Sequence record: NC_073069.1
Reading direction: 5' to 3' (one strand)
DNA: 44,283 nt
From: Escherichia phage B2
Numbering within the stretch: position 1 is the first letter of the stretch; every line of letters starts with the position of its first letter. Of the stretch, positions 1 to 43,276 are shown one piece after another. Below the pieces are notes generated by a model that ran no database searches, was not told the DNA's origin, and was given only the letters and a program-made list of their open reading frames with translations. The position numbers and the translations under genes were made by a program.

Positions 1-2292
1 ATGAAAGACTTTGAACGCCTGTTTCTCGATACCGAGACATTTAGCGGGGTGGATCTGAAGAAAGTGGGCGCATACGCCTACGCGGAACACCCAACTACTG
101 AGATTATGATTTGCACATACGCCATCGACGAGGGCCGCGTGCAAACGTGGGATTGCACCGAGTCCCCCACAATGCCGCGTGAACTGCGCAAGGCGCTCCG
201 CCGGGTATCCCGCAAGAAAGCAAAAATCGTGATGGCTAACGGCCTCCTGTTTGACCGCCTGGTTATTCGCGAGAAGTGGGGCATTGACCTGCCAGTGTGC
301 CAGATCGAAGATACCATGATTATGGCCTTTCGCCACGCGCTGCCCGGTAGCCTCGATATGCAATGTCAGGTGCTGGGTGTTGACGCAGAACACGCGAAGG
401 ATAAGGCGGGCAAGGCGCTGATCAAACGATTCTGTAAGCCAACCCCTAAGACCTACAAAATCCGCCGCTACACGCGCGAGACGCACCCCGAGGAGTGGGC
501 TAAATTCCTGCGCTATGCCGCGCTGGATATCATCGCGATGAGGGAAGTCTATTGGCGCATACCGGACTGGGGTAATACGCCGAAGGAAGACGAAATCCTG
601 CTTATTGACCAGTTGATTAACGACCGCGGCTTCTATGTGGACGTTGACCTGGCGCGCGCTGCGATCAAGGCGGTACAGGCGCATAAAGAAGAGTTGAAGG
701 AAGAGGCCTGGGAGCGCTTCGGCGGTAAGCTGACCGGCAATGACTTCCTGCCAGCGCTGCGCGACCTCGCGCCTGCGTTCACAATCCACAACGCGCAGAA
801 ATCCACGCTTAACGACCTGCTGGAAGATCCAGACTTCCCCGACGAGGGCAAAGTGCTTATCGAAATGCGCCTCGGTGCGTCATCAACGGCATCGACTAAG
901 TACAATCCGCTTGTGAATGGCCTATCCGCCGATGGTCGCCGCCGTGGGTGTCTCCAGTATGGTGGCGCAAAGCGCACACTGCGTTGGGCCGGTAAAGGCT
1001 TTCAGCCTCAAAACCTGGCACGCGGCGAGTATAGTGATGACCACGAAGGGAAGATTAAACGCCGTGAAGGCGAGAGCGACGTAGCGTTTTGGGTGCGGTC
1101 GCACATGCTCACCAACGGCATCAACGCCCTGTTACGTGGGACAGCGCACTGGGCGTATGACATATCGAAGCTAACGGCCTCGACTGTTCGCGGGTGCATT
1201 ATTCCGGCGAAGGGTAAGAAGTTTGTCGTCGCGGACTACTCCAACGTGGAAGGGCGCGGCCTCGCCTGGATCGCTGGCGAGAAAACCGCGCTAATGGTAT
1301 TTAGGGCCGGTCGCGATATTTATTGTGAGACTGCCGGTAAAATGTTCGGCCTCGACCCGGAATACATTAAAGCCAACCGCAAAGACTTACGCCAGATCGG
1401 TAAGGCGTGCGAATTGGGCCTGGGCTATGGTGGTGGCGTGGCTGCGTTCTTGCAGTTCGCTAAAAACCTGGGCCTCGACCTTTATGCGATGGCTGACGTG
1501 ATGAAGGGCACATTCCCCGATCACATTTGGGCGGCGGCGAAACGTGGATATGAGTACGCCCGCATTAACGAAGCGAAGCGACCGCCGAAGCCGGGCAAGA
1601 AGGACGAGCGCCCGACTTACATACTGCCGAAAAACGTATGGCTGACGTGTGATGCGATTAAACGCATGTGGCGCGAGGCGCACCCGAAGACGGTAGCCTT
1701 TTGGGCCGAACTGGAAGATGCGGTGTTGTGTGCAATCCGCAATCCGGGCAAAGCGTACTGGGCGGGCGCGAACGTTCGCCCGGATGGAAAGAAAGCGCTC
1801 AAGATAGTCCGCACGAAGGCGAAGCATGACCCAACCTTCGACGAGGAACGCGACGACCCGAACGCCGCGGGGTGGTGGTTGAAAATTGAGTTGCCGTCGG
1901 GGCGTATTATGAGTTATCCGGGCATTGCGCTGTCAGTGACGACCGAGATCGACGAAGATACCGGCAAGAAACGCACCAGCACCCGTATTAAATATCAGGG
2001 TGAGAATCAGACGACGCGCCAGTGGGGATCCCAGTACACCTACGGCGGAAAACTCACGGAAAACATCGTGCAGGCGCTGTGTCGCGATATCCTCGCATGG
2101 TCCATGCCGGGCGTTGAAGCTGCGGGATATGAGATCGTACTGTCCGTACACGATGAACTGATAACCGAAGTGCCGGATACTGACGACTACACAACCGAGG
2201 AGTTGTGCGCGCTGATGTGCGACCTGCCGGTTTGGGCGAAAGGCTTCCCGCTTGCCGCGGAAGGCGACATTATGTACAGGTACAGAAAATAA
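1..2292 (+). CDS. DNA polymerase I (family A) with N-terminal 3'-5' exonuclease domain
   Basis: 763 aa ORF starting at window position 1; exonuclease motif LFLDTETF near N-terminus, motif B-like RQIGKACELGLGYGGG, motif C-like VHDEL. Confidence 0.9.
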   Translation: MKDFERLFLDTETFSGVDLKKVGAYAYAEHPTTEIMICTYAIDEGRVQTWDCTESPTMPRELRKALRRVSRKKAKIVMANGLLFDRLVIREKWGIDLPVCQIEDTMIMAFRHALPGSLDMQCQVLGVDAEHAKDKAGKALIKRFCKPTPKTYKIRRYTRETHPEEWAKFLRYAALDIIAMREVYWRIPDWGNTPKEDEILLIDQLINDRGFYVDVDLARAAIKAVQAHKEELKEEAWERFGGKLTGNDFLPALRDLAPAFTIHNAQKSTLNDLLEDPDFPDEGKVLIEMRLGASSTASTKYNPLVNGLSADGRRRGCLQYGGAKRTLRWAGKGFQPQNLARGEYSDDHEGKIKRREGESDVAFWVRSHMLTNGINALLRGTAHWAYDISKLTASTVRGCIIPAKGKKFVVADYSNVEGRGLAWIAGEKTALMVFRAGRDIYCETAGKMFGLDPEYIKANRKDLRQIGKACELGLGYGGGVAAFLQFAKNLGLDLYAMADVMKGTFPDHIWAAAKRGYEYARINEAKRPPKPGKKDERPTYILPKNVWLTCDAIKRMWREAHPKTVAFWAELEDAVLCAIRNPGKAYWAGANVRPDGKKALKIVRTKAKHDPTFDEERDDPNAAGWWLKIELPSGRIMSYPGIALSVTTEIDEDTGKKRTSTRIKYQGENQTTRQWGSQYTYGGKLTENIVQALCRDILAWSMPGVEAAGYEIVLSVHDELITEVPDTDDYTTEELCALMCDLPVWAKGFPLAAEGDIMYRYRK

Positions 2293-2570
2293 TGACACCA
2301 GAAGGCAAGATTCAAAGTCACCTTATGAAGCTGGTGAAAGCTGTCGGCGGATTCTGCCGTAAAGTGGCATGGGAGGGGCGCGCGGGTGCGCCCGATCTGA
2401 TTATCATCATCAACGGCAGAATAGTTTTCGTCGAAGTGAAGCGCCCCGGTGGTAAACCGAAGCCGCACCAGGTACGAGAACATGAGCGAATGGCCCGCCG
2501 CGGTGCGGACGTTCGCGTCATCGACAACATAGCCGACTGTGATTTATTGGTTGCTGAATTGGTCGCGTAG
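2292..2570 (+). CDS. VRR-NUC domain nuclease
   Basis: Start ATG 2292 overlaps the polymerase stop (TAATG); GAPDLIIIINGRIVFVEVKRPGGKPKPHQ matches the VRR-NUC signature; the track ORF from 2205 is an in-frame upstream extension inside the polymerase gene. Confidence 0.75.
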   Translation: MTPEGKIQSHLMKLVKAVGGFCRKVAWEGRAGAPDLIIIINGRIVFVEVKRPGGKPKPHQVREHERMARRGADVRVIDNIADCDLLVAELVA

Positions 2571-2827: not shown

Positions 2828-3046
2828 ATGAAAGAACACTACCGACTTACCACACTGGGCGAATGCAAACCAGGCGATCGCGTATGGTTTATCGCCGGTA
2901 TGAATTACCCGCTGCCGTTGACGGTGTGCTGGCAAAAATTTAAGAGCTTCCGGGCGACGGGTGTGCACATCGGTCACCGCACCAACTATGACGCCACAAA
3001 AAGGAACTGGAACAGTGAGACAGAAGTCTGGAAAAAGGCGGAATAA
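2828..3046 (+). CDS. hypothetical protein
   Basis: 72 aa from ATG 2828 with gggaga upstream; the track ORF from 2813 uses a TTG start. Confidence 0.35.
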   Translation: MKEHYRLTTLGECKPGDRVWFIAGMNYPLPLTVCWQKFKSFRATGVHIGHRTNYDATKRNWNSETEVWKKAE

Positions 3047-3050
3047 AGAT

Positions 3051-4475
3051 ATGGCAAGATTCCGACGTCGCGAATATCAGAAGTTGATAACCGCGTTCAT
3101 CCTCAAGCATAAGCGATGCAATATCTGGGCGACAATGGGGTCGGGTAAAACTGGCGCGACCATGTGGGCACTGAATAAAATGTTCCAGACTGGTATCCTG
3201 TCCAACCGGGAGGACCGCGTACTGGTGCTGGCCCCGCTGCGCGTTGCGTCCGGTACATGGCCCCCGGAGCAGGAGAAATGGCGCTTCCCCGCCCTGCTGG
3301 TAGTAGACGGCACAGGGCCAGAGAAGGACCGCATTGCTGCGCTTGAGAGCGACGCTAACGTGGTTTGTGTTAACTATGATGTGGTTGAGTGGCTGGTTGA
3401 CTATTACGGCGCTGCGTGGCCCTTTACGGTCGTTGTTGCCGACGAATCCACTAAGCTGAAAGGCTATAGAAGCAAGCAGGGGAGTAAGCGCGCCCGCGCA
3501 CTGGCGGCGATTGCCCATAAGCACGTCAAGCGCTGGATTAACCTTACCGGCACACCCGCGCCAAACGGACTGAAAGACCTGTGGGGTCAGACGTGGTTTG
3601 TCGATGGTGGCGAACGCCTCGGCAGTAGCTATAAGGCATTTACGGATCGCTGGTTTATTAGCAAGCCTGTTAAGCCTGGCAGCTTCACTATGCAGCACGC
3701 CCCGCTTAAGAACTCCGAGAAAGAAATACAACAACGCCTGTCTGACGTATCGCTCACCGTTGATGCGGCTGAATACTTCGGATGTGACAAGCCAATCTAT
3801 ACGCCGGTTGTTGTGGACCTGCCGAAGAAAGCCCGCAAGATTTATGACCAGTTCGAAGCGGAGCTATTTGCCGAACTGGAAAGCGGAACGGTGGAGGCGG
3901 CGAACGCTGCTTCGAAGACCATTAAGTGCCTTCAGCTTGCTTCCGGGGCCGTGTATAAGGTCGACGAAGACGGCGAACGGACCGACGAATGGGTGAAAAT
4001 TCACGACGCTAAACTGGACGCGCTGGAAAGTATCGTGGAGGAGTTGAACGGCGCACCGTTGCTCGTCGCATACCAGTACAAGCATGACCTGGCGCGTCTC
4101 AGGAAGAAATTCCCGCACGGCGTAGCGATGGGTAAGGGTAAGCAAGGCAATAAGGATATGGAAGCGTGGAACAGGGGCGAGATCCCCATCATGTTTGCGC
4201 ACCCCGCATCGGCGGGTCACGGCCTTAACTTGCAGGATGGCGGACACCACCTTGCTATCTTCTCAGACACCTGGAACTATGAGCACTTTGCGCAGATCGT
4301 GGAGCGTATCGGGCCAGTTCGCCAGATGCAAGCCGGACACCCTCGTCCCGTATTCGTCTACATTATCCAGGCGCGCGGCACACTGGATGAACTGGTCGCA
4401 GAGCGTCGAGACAGTAAGCGAGATATCCAGGACGACCTGATGGAATACATGAAAGCTAAAAAGGCGCGCAAGTGA
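3051..4475 (+). CDS. SNF2/DEAD-like superfamily 2 helicase
   Basis: Walker A GSGKTGATM, motif II VVADESTKLK, C-terminal HPASAGHGLNLQ; start trimmed to the first ATG after the upstream stop. Confidence 0.85.
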   Translation: MARFRRREYQKLITAFILKHKRCNIWATMGSGKTGATMWALNKMFQTGILSNREDRVLVLAPLRVASGTWPPEQEKWRFPALLVVDGTGPEKDRIAALESDANVVCVNYDVVEWLVDYYGAAWPFTVVVADESTKLKGYRSKQGSKRARALAAIAHKHVKRWINLTGTPAPNGLKDLWGQTWFVDGGERLGSSYKAFTDRWFISKPVKPGSFTMQHAPLKNSEKEIQQRLSDVSLTVDAAEYFGCDKPIYTPVVVDLPKKARKIYDQFEAELFAELESGTVEAANAASKTIKCLQLASGAVYKVDEDGERTDEWVKIHDAKLDALESIVEELNGAPLLVAYQYKHDLARLRKKFPHGVAMGKGKQGNKDMEAWNRGEIPIMFAHPASAGHGLNLQDGGHHLAIFSDTWNYEHFAQIVERIGPVRQMQAGHPRPVFVYIIQARGTLDELVAERRDSKRDIQDDLMEYMKAKKARK

Positions 4476-5167
4476 TTATATGGTCATTATTTGACGGCAG
4501 CGGCTTGATGATTGAGCGTGCTGCCGAGATGGGGCATAAGTGTTATTGCTTCAACTACTCCGAAGCCGATCACGGGTCTTACCTTGATTACCGGATCTAT
4601 GGGCGCGGTATCCGATATCGTAATGAGTTTATCGATCTGGACTTCGTGGACCGCGCGATGAATGGTGATTTCGGCACGCCGGATATCATTTACGCATTCC
4701 CGCCGTGTACGGATCTGGCGGTTAGCGGTGCGCCAGCTTTCCCGCGCAAACGCGCCCGCGACCCTGCCTTCCAGCTTAAGGCAGTGCGCACCGCGAAGAT
4801 AGCCGCTTACCTGGGTGATTTCTTCGAAGTGCCGTATATGATTGAGAATCCGCGCAGCGTGCTCTCCACTCAATGGCGTAAGCCGGACCACTCGTTTGAC
4901 CCGTGGGAGTATGGCGGCTATTTGCCAGAGGATGACGTACACCCGTTATTCCCTGAATACATCAACGCCCGCGATTCATATCCGAAGCTGACCTGCTTAT
5001 GGACCGGCAACGGCTTCCGTATGCCAGAGAAGAAACCTGTTTTCGTTGAAAAAGGGTACTCGAAACAGTATAGTCGCCTCGGTGGTAAATCCGCTCGTAC
5101 AAAATTAATCCGCTCACTCACCCCGCGCGGCTTCGCGATAGCGGTTAACGAGGAAAATTTAAAATGA
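4472..5167 (+). CDS. DNA (cytosine-5)-methyltransferase-like protein, unusually short
   Basis: GTG start overlapping the helicase stop; motif I-like LFDGSGL, PC motif FPPCTDLAVSG, ENV-like MIENP; only 231 aa so no obvious target recognition domain. Confidence 0.5.
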   Translation: MIIWSLFDGSGLMIERAAEMGHKCYCFNYSEADHGSYLDYRIYGRGIRYRNEFIDLDFVDRAMNGDFGTPDIIYAFPPCTDLAVSGAPAFPRKRARDPAFQLKAVRTAKIAAYLGDFFEVPYMIENPRSVLSTQWRKPDHSFDPWEYGGYLPEDDVHPLFPEYINARDSYPKLTCLWTGNGFRMPEKKPVFVEKGYSKQYSRLGGKSARTKLIRSLTPRGFAIAVNEENLK

Positions 5168-5487
5168 ATACTACATTCGACGCCATCGACTTTTCAGTGG
5201 CAATGACCAATCAGCTTTTTTCCTACGACAGCAAGACCGGCGTCATTCGCCTGAAGTCCACAGGCTGCAAGATTGGCAACCTTAACACTGCCGATGGCGG
5301 AACACGTATCGAATACAACGGTAAGACGCTGTCTGGCGCACGCGTGGCGTGGATTATTGAGACAGGCAATACAATCCCCCCAGGCTTCGCCGTTGTGTGC
5401 CGCCAGCGCACGCCAGGGCACTACGGCAACCGGATCAGCAATCTGTATCTGGTAGACGTAGCGCGCGACCCAAACTTTTATGCGTAA
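5164..5487 (+). CDS. HNH_3-like domain protein with substituted catalytic histidines
   Basis: ATGA start/stop overlap; ARVAWIIETGNTIPPGFAVVCRQRTPGHYGNRISNLYLV follows the HNH_3 pattern but has AR and CR where the conserved His residues are expected. Confidence 0.4.
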   Translation: MNTTFDAIDFSVAMTNQLFSYDSKTGVIRLKSTGCKIGNLNTADGGTRIEYNGKTLSGARVAWIIETGNTIPPGFAVVCRQRTPGHYGNRISNLYLVDVARDPNFYA

Positions 5488-5520
5488 ATTGGTTGCATAA
5501 TCATATTGGTTGCATTATAT
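5488..5520 (+). promoter_or_regulatory. tandem ATTGGTTGCA motifs followed by TATATT
   Basis: attggttgca at 5488-5497 and 5505-5514, upstream of the 5569 gene. Confidence 0.4.
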
Positions 5521-5568
5521 TGAGGGTGTCCGGTTTGGACGCCCTTTTTAATACCTGGAGACAACACG

Positions 5569-6033
5569 ATGAAAATTTTACAAGAAGAGAAAAATTACTG
5601 GGCCGCGCAATGCCTCGAAGCCCGCGAGCAAACGGCCAACGCGAAACAATCGGCCGAAATCTTCCGGTCAGGTTATGAAACGGAAGAAAAGCGTCGCATG
5701 GAGTTAGAGGAGCGCTTCGAACTGCTATTCGAACTGATGGGGATTATGCAGCGCACCGGATACACCACCAGCGTTGCACTAAACCGCATCACTGCCGACG
5801 GGCTGCGTGAGCATTGCAAACGGGCCGAGGAGTACGTGCGTCCGAAGGGCCGCCAGTCTTCGATCGCCCGGAAAGACCTTGTGCTCATGGCGTGGCGCAA
5901 CCCTACAAACGGCAGCATCTACCCAGACGCGCGCCCGCTTAGTGCCGAGGAATCAAAGCGCGTGCAACGCATTCTCAAAACCGGCAATAAAATCGCCCTG
6001 TATGCGATAGACACCGACCATGCAGAAGAGTGA
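5569..6033 (+). CDS. hypothetical protein
   Basis: 154 aa ORF with ggaga SD upstream; no recognised motif. Confidence 0.45.
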   Translation: MKILQEEKNYWAAQCLEAREQTANAKQSAEIFRSGYETEEKRRMELEERFELLFELMGIMQRTGYTTSVALNRITADGLREHCKRAEEYVRPKGRQSSIARKDLVLMAWRNPTNGSIYPDARPLSAEESKRVQRILKTGNKIALYAIDTDHAEE

Positions 6034-6505
6034 GCAAAAAGATAGCTGGCGCACGCCGCCAGCTTTATTTAAACCGCTGCGCCGGAAGTACCGATTCCGT
6101 TATGACATGGCGGCAAGCGACGCCAACCATCTGCTACCGCGTTACTTCACGGCAGAGCACAGCGCGCTTGAGGTGGACTGGTCAGAGTTGAAAGGGTGGA
6201 AGTGGTGCAACCCGCCGTATTCCGATCCGCTGCCGTGGGTTAAGTGCGCAGCGCACGGACGCCGGACCGTCATGCTACTGAATCAGGACACGTCGACAAA
6301 GTGGGCGCGGTTGGCCCGGAAGACTGCAAACCTGATAATTCTTCTGGACTGGCGGATCCGATTTATACATGCCGTCACCGGTGAAGTCGGGCCGAGCAAT
6401 AACAAGTGCCAGCAATTGATAATCTTTGGCGAAGCGCCACCCATCGGCAGCGCACAAATTGAAATAATGAGCGAAGGAGAACTCCTTGAATATCTTAATC
6501 GTTGA
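6020..6505 (+). CDS. phage Dam-type DNA N6-adenine methyltransferase
   Basis: WRTPPALF near N-terminus, DMAASDANH, and catalytic NPPY (WCNPPYSD); characteristic small phage Dam family. Confidence 0.8.
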   Translation: MQKSEQKDSWRTPPALFKPLRRKYRFRYDMAASDANHLLPRYFTAEHSALEVDWSELKGWKWCNPPYSDPLPWVKCAAHGRRTVMLLNQDTSTKWARLARKTANLIILLDWRIRFIHAVTGEVGPSNNKCQQLIIFGEAPPIGSAQIEIMSEGELLEYLNR

Positions 6506-6710
6506 CCGCGACCCCGCGGTCGTAGACCAAATGCAAAGAGACTACTGTATTGATCCGCGACGCAATCGGGTAGTGCGCGCGTCTCGCCCCGAATACATCC
6601 TGGGCCTTGACCTCACCGGTTGGCTTGTCATGACTCAGCGTTGCCATTTCGTGTGCAACTCCTTTACTGCGCGAAGCGCCCGTTACACCCTTATTGAGAG
6701 TTTAAAATGA
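6486..6710 (+). CDS. hypothetical protein
   Basis: 74 aa ORF from a TTG start with strong aaggaga SD 6 nt upstream; overlaps the preceding gene end. Confidence 0.3.
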   Translation: MNILIVDRDPAVVDQMQRDYCIDPRRNRVVRASRPEYILGLDLTGWLVMTQRCHFVCNSFTARSARYTLIESLK

Positions 6711-7177
6711 AATTACTGATTTGCGATTTGGATGGCGTTATTAACGGTTCAAGCGATGCGCGTGCCGACTTGGTGCCTGGCATAAAAACTAAATCCACCT
6801 TTTGGGCGAAGTGGCACAAAGCGCACGTCCGCGAAGACCTGAACATGGATATGCTGCCGCTACTGCGCATGTATAAAGAGCAAGGCTTCGAGATCGCGTA
6901 TCTGACCAACCGGCAGCGAGAATGTTGGGACACCACCGCCGAGCAATTGGAGGTCTTCCCGGTAGGCCGGTTGTTTATGCGCCACATGTTGGACGACACC
7001 CCGCCGCCTGAGTTTAAAGCGTGCGCCGTGTTCAAAATGGTATGTTACGCGGACGTGTCTGAACTGGTCATCATTGAAGATTGCGAGAAGAACATCGCGG
7101 CAATTCGTCGGGCGTGTGGTGATTTGGTCCCGAAAATTTACGCAATAAACGTTGCAAAATTCACTTGCAACCAATAG
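6707..7177 (+). CDS. HAD-superfamily hydrolase-like protein (putative phosphatase/nucleotidase)
   Basis: ATGA overlap start; HAD motif I LLICDLDGVI, YLTNR and a later acidic motif IIEDCEKN. Confidence 0.5.
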   Translation: MKLLICDLDGVINGSSDARADLVPGIKTKSTFWAKWHKAHVREDLNMDMLPLLRMYKEQGFEIAYLTNRQRECWDTTAEQLEVFPVGRLFMRHMLDDTPPPEFKACAVFKMVCYADVSELVIIEDCEKNIAAIRRACGDLVPKIYAINVAKFTCNQ

Positions 7178-7196
7178 GTTGGTTGCACTATAGTAA
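7166..7196 (+). promoter_or_regulatory. perfect inverted repeat TGCAACCAA-tagg-TTGGTTGCA followed by TATAGT
   Basis: 9-bp arms at 7166-7174 and 7179-7187 spanning the stop of the HAD-like gene, upstream of the 7242 gene. Confidence 0.4.
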
Positions 7197-7241: not shown

Positions 7242-7796
7242 GTGAAAGCATACGAATACTGCAAAAACGCCGCCACCACTATGGAACAGCGCGGGAAAGA
7301 AAACGGCTATGACAACGCGAAAGAAGAACGCAGCGCTAAACAAATCGCTGCCGTGTTTAACGCGCTTACCGGGCGCGACCTTACCGAGCAAGAAGCCTGG
7401 ACCTTCCTGATCTGCCTGAAGCTGGTGCGCCAGCACCGTAAGCACCAGGAAGATAACATCGTGGACCTGGTGGCGTATGCCGCCCTGCTGGGCGAGTCTT
7501 ACATGACCGTGCATGACGAGATTCAGATCGATACAACGGCCGCACAATTCGACAGCCTCAAAGGCCTGTCCGTGCGCCTGGACGGCGAGATTAATGCGTA
7601 TAACAGCGCAATTCGCGTTGCAGAGGACACGGTAGCCTCGTTCGGCAAGACGGTTAAGGCCCGCGATTTTGGAGTTGTAGCCCAGGACGTCCAGCCTATG
7701 GTCGTGCTCACCGGCGAAGACGGATCGAAAATCTGCATGACGCAGGAAGACTTCCGTAACATGGAAAAAACACTGGTGACGGGCGCACTTAAATAA
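7242..7796 (+). CDS. conserved phage protein of unknown function
   Basis: 184 aa, GTG start; N-terminal YDN...IAAVFNALTG...LTEQEAWTFLICLKLVRQ block looks like a conserved phage domain but I cannot name it with confidence. Confidence 0.45.
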   Translation: MKAYEYCKNAATTMEQRGKENGYDNAKEERSAKQIAAVFNALTGRDLTEQEAWTFLICLKLVRQHRKHQEDNIVDLVAYAALLGESYMTVHDEIQIDTTAAQFDSLKGLSVRLDGEINAYNSAIRVAEDTVASFGKTVKARDFGVVAQDVQPMVVLTGEDGSKICMTQEDFRNMEKTLVTGALK

Positions 7797-26390: not shown

Positions 26391-26418
26391 TTGGTTGCAG
26401 TATATTGGTTGCACACCA
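26391..26418 (+). promoter_or_regulatory. tandem TTGGTTGCA motifs upstream of the + strand moron cassette
   Basis: ttggttgcagtatattggttgcacaccaaca; the 18-nt ATTGGTTGCACACCAACA also occurs upstream of the 37075 gene. Confidence 0.45.
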
Positions 26419-33998: not shown

Positions 33999-34031
33999 AT
34001 TGGTTGCAGTATGACCCCTGTGTTGGTTGCG
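33999..34031 (+). promoter_or_regulatory. ATTGGTTGCA motif and a second TTGGTTGCG copy
   Basis: attggttgcagtatga at 33999 and ttggttgcg at 34023, both + orientation, inside the leftward late region just before the 34042-34067 hairpin. Confidence 0.35.
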
Positions 34032-37096: not shown

Positions 37097-37137
37097 TGCA
37101 ACCAATATAGCAGGGTGCGGGGGTGGGCGCAACCAAT
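37097..37137 (-). promoter_or_regulatory. two ATTGGTTGC motifs upstream of the 37075 gene
   Basis: On the minus strand ATTGGTTGCGC...ATTGGTTGCACACCAACA then SD and ATG. Confidence 0.45.
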
Positions 37138-43186: not shown

Positions 43187-43276
43187 CCACCCAGGCGCAA
43201 CCAAGTAGATTAGCAACCAAGCCGAACGGGGTGGCTCACAATAACCCCGATACATGTGAAACTGAGGAATTGGAAA

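Follow-up and report, generated by a model that had tools for sequence, protein, structure and literature searches.

Can a protein of 231 amino acids (aa) that carries the catalytic motifs of the DNA C5-cytosine methyltransferases, but appears too short to hold a normal target recognition domain (TRD), still methylate DNA, and what role would it play beside a second methyltransferase? This question is raised by positions 4472-6505 in the genome of Escherichia phage B2 (sequence record NC_073069.1), an E. coli siphophage of the genus Dhillonvirus, whose 44,283 nucleotides (nt) are the whole stretch analysed here and are referred to below as the window. A first-pass annotation had described the locus as two orphan DNA methyltransferases, one minimal and C5-like and the other of the Dam type, flanking a substituted HNH-like gene. 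We consider it very likely that the region is the tail end of a replication or early gene block and that it encodes two stand-alone, S-adenosylmethionine (SAM)-dependent DNA methyltransferases, both from well-populated phage families.

All three genes (C5-like, HNH-like and Dam) were found on the plus strand where that annotation had placed them. Because their pairwise ratios of non-synonymous to synonymous substitution (dN/dS) against four natural relatives are low (C5-like, 0.03-0.07; HNH-like, 0.03-0.06; Dam, 0.06-0.15), they are genuine genes under selection and not chance open reading frames (ORFs). The genes and motifs concerned are as follows:

4472-5167, plus strand: minimal 'Dcm-like' DNA C5-cytosine methyltransferase, 231 aa (phrog_757, E 2e-82)
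4490-4504, plus strand: motif I of the C5 enzyme, FDGSG, residues 7-11, SAM binding
4700-4708, plus strand: motif IV, PPC, residues 77-79, with the catalytic cysteine C79
4844-4852, plus strand: motif VI, ENP, residues 125-127, with the ENV-type glutamate E125
5024-5089, plus strand: hypervariable loop of the C5 enzyme, residues 185-206, P-EKKPVFVEKGYSKQYSRL-GGK, just ahead of motif IX
5111-5137, plus strand: motif IX-like RSLTPRGFA of the C5 enzyme
5164-5487, plus strand: I-HmuI/HNH_3-like protein without the catalytic Asp-His, 107 aa (PHROG 99)
6020-6505, plus strand: phage Dam-family N6-adenine DNA methyltransferase, 161 aa (PF05869)
6209-6220, plus strand: NPPY of Dam, residues 64-67, the (D/N)PPY catalytic motif

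The minimal Dcm-like cytosine methyltransferase

The C5 gene begins with a GTG codon and overlaps the stop of the preceding helicase gene by 4 nt. Its product contains FDGSG, PPC and ENP, as had been noticed from the letters, and the residues F7, G9 and G11, P77-P78-C79 and E125-N126-P127 are invariant in 43 homologues and 93-98% conserved in 116 distant representatives of the family (94% for C79; 97, 93 and 98% for E125, N126 and P127, respectively). Motif I aligns with that of M.HaeIII, and the family-specific residues K93, P144, D168, Y170, K172, T174, W177, P185, R214, P218 and G220 are all present in the window protein. PHROG 757, labelled 'DNA methyltransferase', is matched over residues 1-229. 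The protein has the C5 methyltransferase fold, and its AlphaFold model is confident (predicted local distance difference test, pLDDT, 90.8; predicted template modelling score, pTM, 0.89).

The size of the protein is that of its family. A large protein database holds 2,880 homologues, essentially all of 225-250 aa and from many phage types, and a profile search of 1.8 billion cluster representatives gave 1,995 clusters (50% identity) at E <= 1e-3; since nearly all of these are of 200-260 aa, small size is the norm in this minimal C5 family. By tblastn we found members in 1,510 records of phages from hosts such as Escherichia, Klebsiella, Salmonella and Vibrio, which places the family among the most widespread phage methyltransferases, whereas it is rare in bacteria, with 28 loci at one genome per species. 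Compared with the classical enzymes of PF00145 (M.HhaI, M.HaeIII, E. coli Dcm), the window protein is about 100 aa shorter and scores under the Pfam threshold, and its TRD is shrunk to a conserved insert and a variable loop. A search of PDB sequences with the protein and its profile returned only a weak match to M.HaeIII (E 0.81) and a spurious kinase, and when hhalign compared the profile with the 330-aa C5 methyltransferase of Edwardsiella phage eiAU-183, the alignment was confined to the region of motif IX. The best structural match was the catalytic domain of DNMT3A/DNMT3B (6u8p, 6f57), but at 13-16% identity and a template modelling (TM) score of about 0.5; the window enzyme has none of the DNMT3 regulatory domains and shows no evidence of a DNMT3-type oligomer, so that we regard this as a likeness of architecture and not as membership.

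A homologue of known activity is found in phage K42, whose 711-bp dcm gene is the trigger of retron Ec86/Eco1 and is missing from escaper phages (bioRxiv 10.1101/2023.08.16.553469). Expression of K42 Dcm raised the 5-methylcytosine (5mC) content of Ec86 multicopy single-stranded DNA (msDNA) in vivo, as measured by LC-MS (mass spectrometry coupled to liquid chromatography), whereas a C82A/E128A/K175A/K176A mutant did not, and msDNA from an empty-vector control in dcm+ MG1655 was low in 5mC (bioRxiv 10.1101/2023.08.16.553469). This work has been restated in a peer-reviewed paper (PMC12916289). The K42 genome is 95.4% identical to that of phage KarlJaspers (Bas06) (bioRxiv 10.1101/2023.08.16.553469), in which we found exactly one Dcm-like gene, bas06_0055, also of 711 bp, with a product 54% identical to the window protein over its full length (E 2e-86). 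The K42/KarlJaspers enzyme belongs to the same phrog_757 family (236 aa against 231 aa in the window) and shares with the B2 protein the identical motifs FxGxG, FPPCTDL, IENP and IRSLTPRGFA. The four residues mutated in K42, C82, E128, K175 and K176, correspond to C79, E125, K172 and L173 in the window; the first three are kept and K176 is replaced by Leu173. The genetic context differs, as the window gene follows an SNF2 helicase whereas the KarlJaspers gene lies in a different module.

By analogy with the K42 enzyme, this 231-aa member of the minimal 'Dcm-like' family would be catalytically active and methylate cytosine at C5. FDGSG would hold SAM, Cys79 of PPC would serve as the nucleophile and Glu125 of ENP would protonate N3, while a conserved insert of about 50 aa and the short hypervariable loop before motif IX would stand in for the large TRD, in an arrangement that resembles the DNMT3 catalytic domain. 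We regard it as highly improbable that the protein makes no 5mC, whether as an inactive relative or by transferring another group (for example a carboxymethyl from carboxy-S-adenosylmethionine, Cx-SAM) towards hypermodification, given that its catalytic motifs are all intact and under strong purifying selection, that the product of the 54%-identical K42 enzyme matched a 5mC standard in LC-MS, and that neither a Cx-SAM synthase nor other hypermodification genes are annotated in B2 or related genomes. The first-pass annotation had left room for a new arrangement of specificity or for a relative that does not methylate; with a family of this size range, intact motifs and the characterised K42 homologue, that suggestion is unsupported, and the puzzle of so small a C5 enzyme appears largely answered by analogy.

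Some observations nevertheless weigh against an active enzyme. Searched alone, the 231-aa protein matched neither PF00145 at E <= 0.1 nor any NCBIfam model, although PF00145 is matched at E <= 1 by 28 of its 43 close homologues (best 1.3e-6). Its motif II carries Asn28 (4553-4555) where 90% of the distant representatives have Asp; Asn is found in Dhillonvirus and close relatives, including the K42/KarlJaspers enzyme, which is active all the same. In Shigella phage 1b (OR420686.2) the Dcm-like gene is cut to a 186-bp remnant (3989-4174) that covers residues 175-231 only, between intact helicase and HNH-like genes; the loss may be natural or may come from the assembly of what is a 'partial genome', and it suggests that the phage of that record, at least, can do without the gene. 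The literature yielded no methylome for B2 or for any Dhillonvirus.

With regard to the target, the claim that the protein is too short for a normal TRD stands as far as a large TRD is concerned, but about 68 residues (R136 to L203) do lie between motifs VIII and IX, a spacing comparable to the small TRD of DNMT3, and these include the hypervariable loop. Residues 136-185 are strongly conserved in the 116 distant representatives, whereas the stretch from P185 to LGGK ranges from 12 to 62 aa and has no conserved sequence. As it sits at the TRD position, this loop is the natural candidate for a mini target-recognition element. In the window it reads 'GYSKQYSRL' (type 'GYS..Q'), unlike the 'DNPGWAKT' (type 'DNPGW') of K42/KarlJaspers.

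The target of the Dhillonvirus enzyme may be CCWGG, as proposed for K42, but with loops of different types this is an unproven extrapolation. Two of the points against such a reading also favour another target: the unlike loop, and the fact that CCWGG was taken over from the host Dcm for K42 Dcm and not mapped, the mutation of a site in msDNA being its only backing (bioRxiv 10.1101/2023.08.16.553469). Our searches of the literature likewise found no directly mapped specificity for the Dcm-like family; the hypervariable loop, so variable in length across the family, is the obvious place to look. An active enzyme with a target of its own, set by its loop variant (a motif that is shorter or less strict, or DNA in single-stranded or hairpin form), is thus possible, if somewhat doubtful. 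The low 5mC of the empty-vector msDNA from dcm+ cells implies that the phage enzyme did what the host Dcm did not, although that control could also be explained by a host Dcm too weak for the number of msDNA copies; the best structural match, DNMT3, is dinucleotide-specific, but mutation of CCTGG in msDNA abolished Ec86 defence against K42, and CCWGG is not depleted in the window, as expected if these sites are protected. If specificity is shared with K42, retron Ec86/Eco1 should sense Dhillonviruses, because a homologue of their enzyme is its trigger; that a Dcm-like activity can set off this defence is its known cost.

The HNH-like protein between the methylases

The HNH-like gene starts 4 nt before the end of the C5 gene, and its 107-aa product matches PHROG 99 'HNH endonuclease' (E 2.3e-16). 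Comparison with the HNH_3 profile, on whose scaffold the first-pass annotation had placed the protein, did reveal a match, but a sub-threshold one (13.1 bits against 24.8, E 0.075), in which residues 60-77 align with profile positions 5-21 and anchor the mapping of residues. On this anchor the conserved His of 'HR' corresponds to Ala59, and the Asp-His with which strand 1 ends, the general base, corresponds to V78-C79 in the window and to T-L in relatives. The canonical histidines are indeed substituted, the sole histidine being H86, which is invariant; the positions of GHY, N89 and N93 are conserved. The structural model resembles the I-HmuI fold. Its confidence is moderate only (pLDDT 76) and the HNH_3 mapping combines a sub-threshold Pfam match with alignment by eye, both of which count against the reading given below. 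A search of PDB sequences with the profile of the protein gave no match. Compared with I-HmuI (PDB 1u3e), which has a catalytic Asp-His and C-terminal NUMOD/helix-turn-helix domains, the protein lacks both and ends at residue 107. The protein eiAU gp20 proved unsuitable as an authentic HNH_3 comparator, as it belongs to another HNH family (PF01844).

The family is small, with ten clusters from Dhillonvirus and from Edwardsiella phages of the eiAU group. Within these limits the gene is constant: its syntenic position is the same in essentially every Dhillonvirus (about 156 records) and in Eiauvirus. In phage eiAU-183, which is of another genus, the module has the same order (3860-5882; helicase, dead HNH-like gene, C5 methyltransferase, Dam), so that the association of the HNH-like gene with the two methylases predates the genus Dhillonvirus; the C5 enzyme of that phage is a 330-aa PF00145 protein and not of the minimal type. 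A NUMOD-like match, weak and N-terminal, was seen in the Edwardsiella homologue alone.

The ancestor of the 107-aa protein would be an HNH homing endonuclease of the I-HmuI type, from which the C-terminal DNA-binding domains and the catalytic Asp-His have since disappeared; selection would keep the protein, most likely because it binds DNA without cleaving it or serves as an accessory factor. Since its dN/dS is 0.03-0.06 and it is present in essentially every Dhillonvirus, the gene is probably a domesticated core gene and not, as are those of the I-HmuI type, a mobile homing gene. GenBank and BASEL label it 'putative HNH/homing endonuclease', and it could in principle still cut DNA through non-canonical residues (invariant H86, R60, R90, N93), perhaps as a free-standing homing gene directed at the methylase or helicase locus. 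The I-HmuI-like fold and the conserved GHY, N89 and N93 positions would fit such a nuclease; we nevertheless judge it improbable, as the Asp-His is replaced by V-C or T-L, the DNA-binding domains typical of I-HmuI-type enzymes are missing, and a mobile homing gene would be patchy in its distribution instead of fixed in synteny across some 156 records and Eiauvirus under purifying selection. The name 'HNH endonuclease' is thus probably wrong as to function for a conserved core gene without the catalytic histidine. We largely rejected the idea that the C5 enzyme depends on this protein as a subunit for its specificity, as the C5 family has thousands of members against ten HNH-like clusters and K42 Dcm works when expressed alone.

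The Dam enzyme and the probable role of the orphan pair

The Dam-family assignment of the 161-aa protein and its NPPY motif, both proposed in the first-pass annotation, were borne out: PF05869 is matched at E 2.9e-35 (121.9 bits, cut-off 28.1) and phrog_111 at E 4.7e-55, while TIGR01712 gave 85.4 bits, under its equivalog cut-off of 97.05. A search of PDB sequences gave no match. The protein has NPPY, small size and orphan status in common with the phage Dam family (PF05869/TIGR01712), and its Pfam score is far above threshold, but it is only 36% identical to the dam product of Stx-converting phages and about 30% to the Dam of T1-like phages. Known members of the phage Dam family (HP1, T1, Stx-phage VT-2) methylate GATC. 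By analogy with these, the enzyme would modify adenine N6, probably in GATC; the target is put no more firmly because of the 30-36% identity and the missed TIGR01712 cut-off.

Both methyltransferases are orphans, as had been stated. No cognate restriction endonuclease was present among the neighbours of the methylases (helicase, HNH-like gene, a 154-aa ORF, HAD phosphatase) or in the gene lists of curated relatives, and the window has no other candidate. Its only other nuclease-like genes encode a VRR-NUC protein and a DUF2800/PD-(D/E)XK protein resembling Cas4, which lies next to an Enc34-type SSB (a protein that binds single-stranded DNA). We rejected both as hidden restriction enzymes, the first being a small structure-specific nuclease domain and the second a DUF2800/Cas4-like protein that adjoins the SSB. 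A phrog_757 member is likewise paired with a second small methyltransferase in Burkholderia cenocepacia, where it lies in a prophage early region beside RecT and an exonuclease.

Protection from host restriction is a plausible, and the most likely, role for the two enzymes. They would pre-methylate replicating phage DNA, so that, no matter how the host's own DNA is methylated, progeny would be shielded from restriction systems directed at unmethylated sites. Neither CCWGG (140 observed in the window, 154 expected) nor GATC (172 observed, 205 expected) is depleted, unlike many 6-bp palindromes; this fits protection but counts for little, site-frequency statistics being only weakly informative.

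The enzymes might instead act mainly in regulation, replication or packaging, through promoter timing, strand discrimination, avoidance of mismatch repair or Vsr, or the marking of phage against host DNA. K-12 hosts already methylate GATC and CCWGG, which would leave little extra protection to be gained. The genes also lie within the replication block, with the C5 start overlapping the helicase stop. The BASEL study, moreover, saw no obvious link between the methyltransferase content of phages and their resistance to restriction, and found Dhillonvirus phages to be comparatively restriction-sensitive; both results speak against protection as well. A mainly regulatory role seems to us rather unlikely all the same: the family is spread over very different phage types and hosts, which fits generic defence evasion, and the conserved intergenic box described below, TTGGTTGCA, holds neither GATC nor CCWGG. 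Nor did either site stand out as clustered at promoters, though no search aimed at such clusters was made. The two roles are not mutually exclusive and can coexist.

Taken as a whole the locus is an ordinary one, since the C5, HNH-like and Dam genes are all of known phage families already annotated in about 150 sequenced relatives, where GenBank and BASEL use the labels 'Dcm-like C5 cytosine methyltransferase', 'putative homing endonuclease' and 'Dam-like N6-adenine methyltransferase', and since a 54%-identical cytosine methylase has been tested. What interest it retains lies in the specificity of the Dcm-like enzyme and its variable loop, in the predicted sensing by Ec86 and in a dead but conserved HNH relative.

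Intergenic boxes, neighbouring genes and relatives

The methylases do flank the HNH-like gene, as first described, but two ORFs lie between them and not one; the second, of 154 aa, is called ORF154 here. An 81-bp intergenic region with a repeated box (5488-5568) divides the C5/HNH-like pair from the ORF154/Dam pair. These and the other features of the neighbourhood are:

1-2292, plus strand: DNA polymerase, replication block
2292-2570, plus strand: VRR-NUC, replication block, followed by two small ORFs and then the helicase
2961-4475, plus strand: SNF2-family helicase (PF00176, E 1e-10; phrog_62, E 4.9e-157)
5489-5497 and 5506-5514, plus strand: pair of TTGGTTGCA boxes (9-mer repeat), followed by TATATT at 5516-5521
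5569-6033, plus strand: ORF154, 154 aa (phrog_10530, E 1.9e-88), overlapping the Dam start by 14 nt
6486-6710, plus strand: ORF74, downstream of Dam
6707-7177, plus strand: HAD-type phosphatase, downstream of ORF74

The methylase module thus extends a replication gene block made up of DNA polymerase, VRR-NUC and SNF2 helicase; the start of the helicase is annotated at 3051 in relatives (annotation of MK728541.1). ORF154 matched no Pfam, NCBIfam or PDB sequence entry and evolves faster than its neighbours (dN/dS 0.17-0.25). Several GenBank records call it 'DNA ligase' by way of phrog_10530. We rejected this identity, as the label of phrog_10530 is backed by no curated model; it looks like a propagated annotation error.

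The 9-mer TTGGTTGCA occurs in 11 exact copies in the window against 0.31 expected, with near-copies in addition. The copies are mostly paired and intergenic (sites at 5489-5514, 7166-7187, 10283, 26391-26413, 34000-34031, 36565, 37097-37136, 40391 and 43196-43220), often with a -10-like hexamer TATATT or TATAGT after them and just upstream of gene starts. The box is therefore a candidate phage-specific promoter or operator element, which at 5489-5521 might serve the ORF154-Dam unit. A wider proposal, which we think fairly unlikely, would join several of these elements: the Dcm-like family would be a DNMT3-like core with a swappable loop of about 20 aa that sets specificity, phages would differ in their cytosine targets, some possibly very short or relaxed, the Dhillonvirus target would not be CCWGG, and the dead I-HmuI-like neighbour could bind DNA as a partner of the methylase or at the TTGGTTGCA boxes.

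Downstream of the module, a DUF6378 protein (7242-7796 in the window) is labelled 'DNA N-6-adenine-methyltransferase' in phage Ioannina (locus 5579-6049). It matches only DUF6378 and PHROGs labelled 'phosphofructokinase', which makes the methyltransferase label doubtful.

The 3.2 kb around the locus is matched by 156 phage records, 149 of them with a coverage of 80% or more; with few exceptions the records come from Dhillonvirus phages of Escherichia or Shigella and are 80-97% identical. Escherichia phage CEC_Kaz_2018 (MK728541.1) has gene coordinates identical to those of the window and the same length (44,283 bp), and the two align base for base over the whole length with zero indels and yet with 9.1% mismatches, mostly at third codon positions; in the intergenic region 5488-5568 only 2 mismatches were counted, against 9.1% genome-wide. 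Such a relation is odd for independent isolates, and the closest natural relatives by identity (about 97%) align to the window only with indels. An indel-free but diverged match of this kind hints at an assembly guided by a reference or at a sequence that was recoded.

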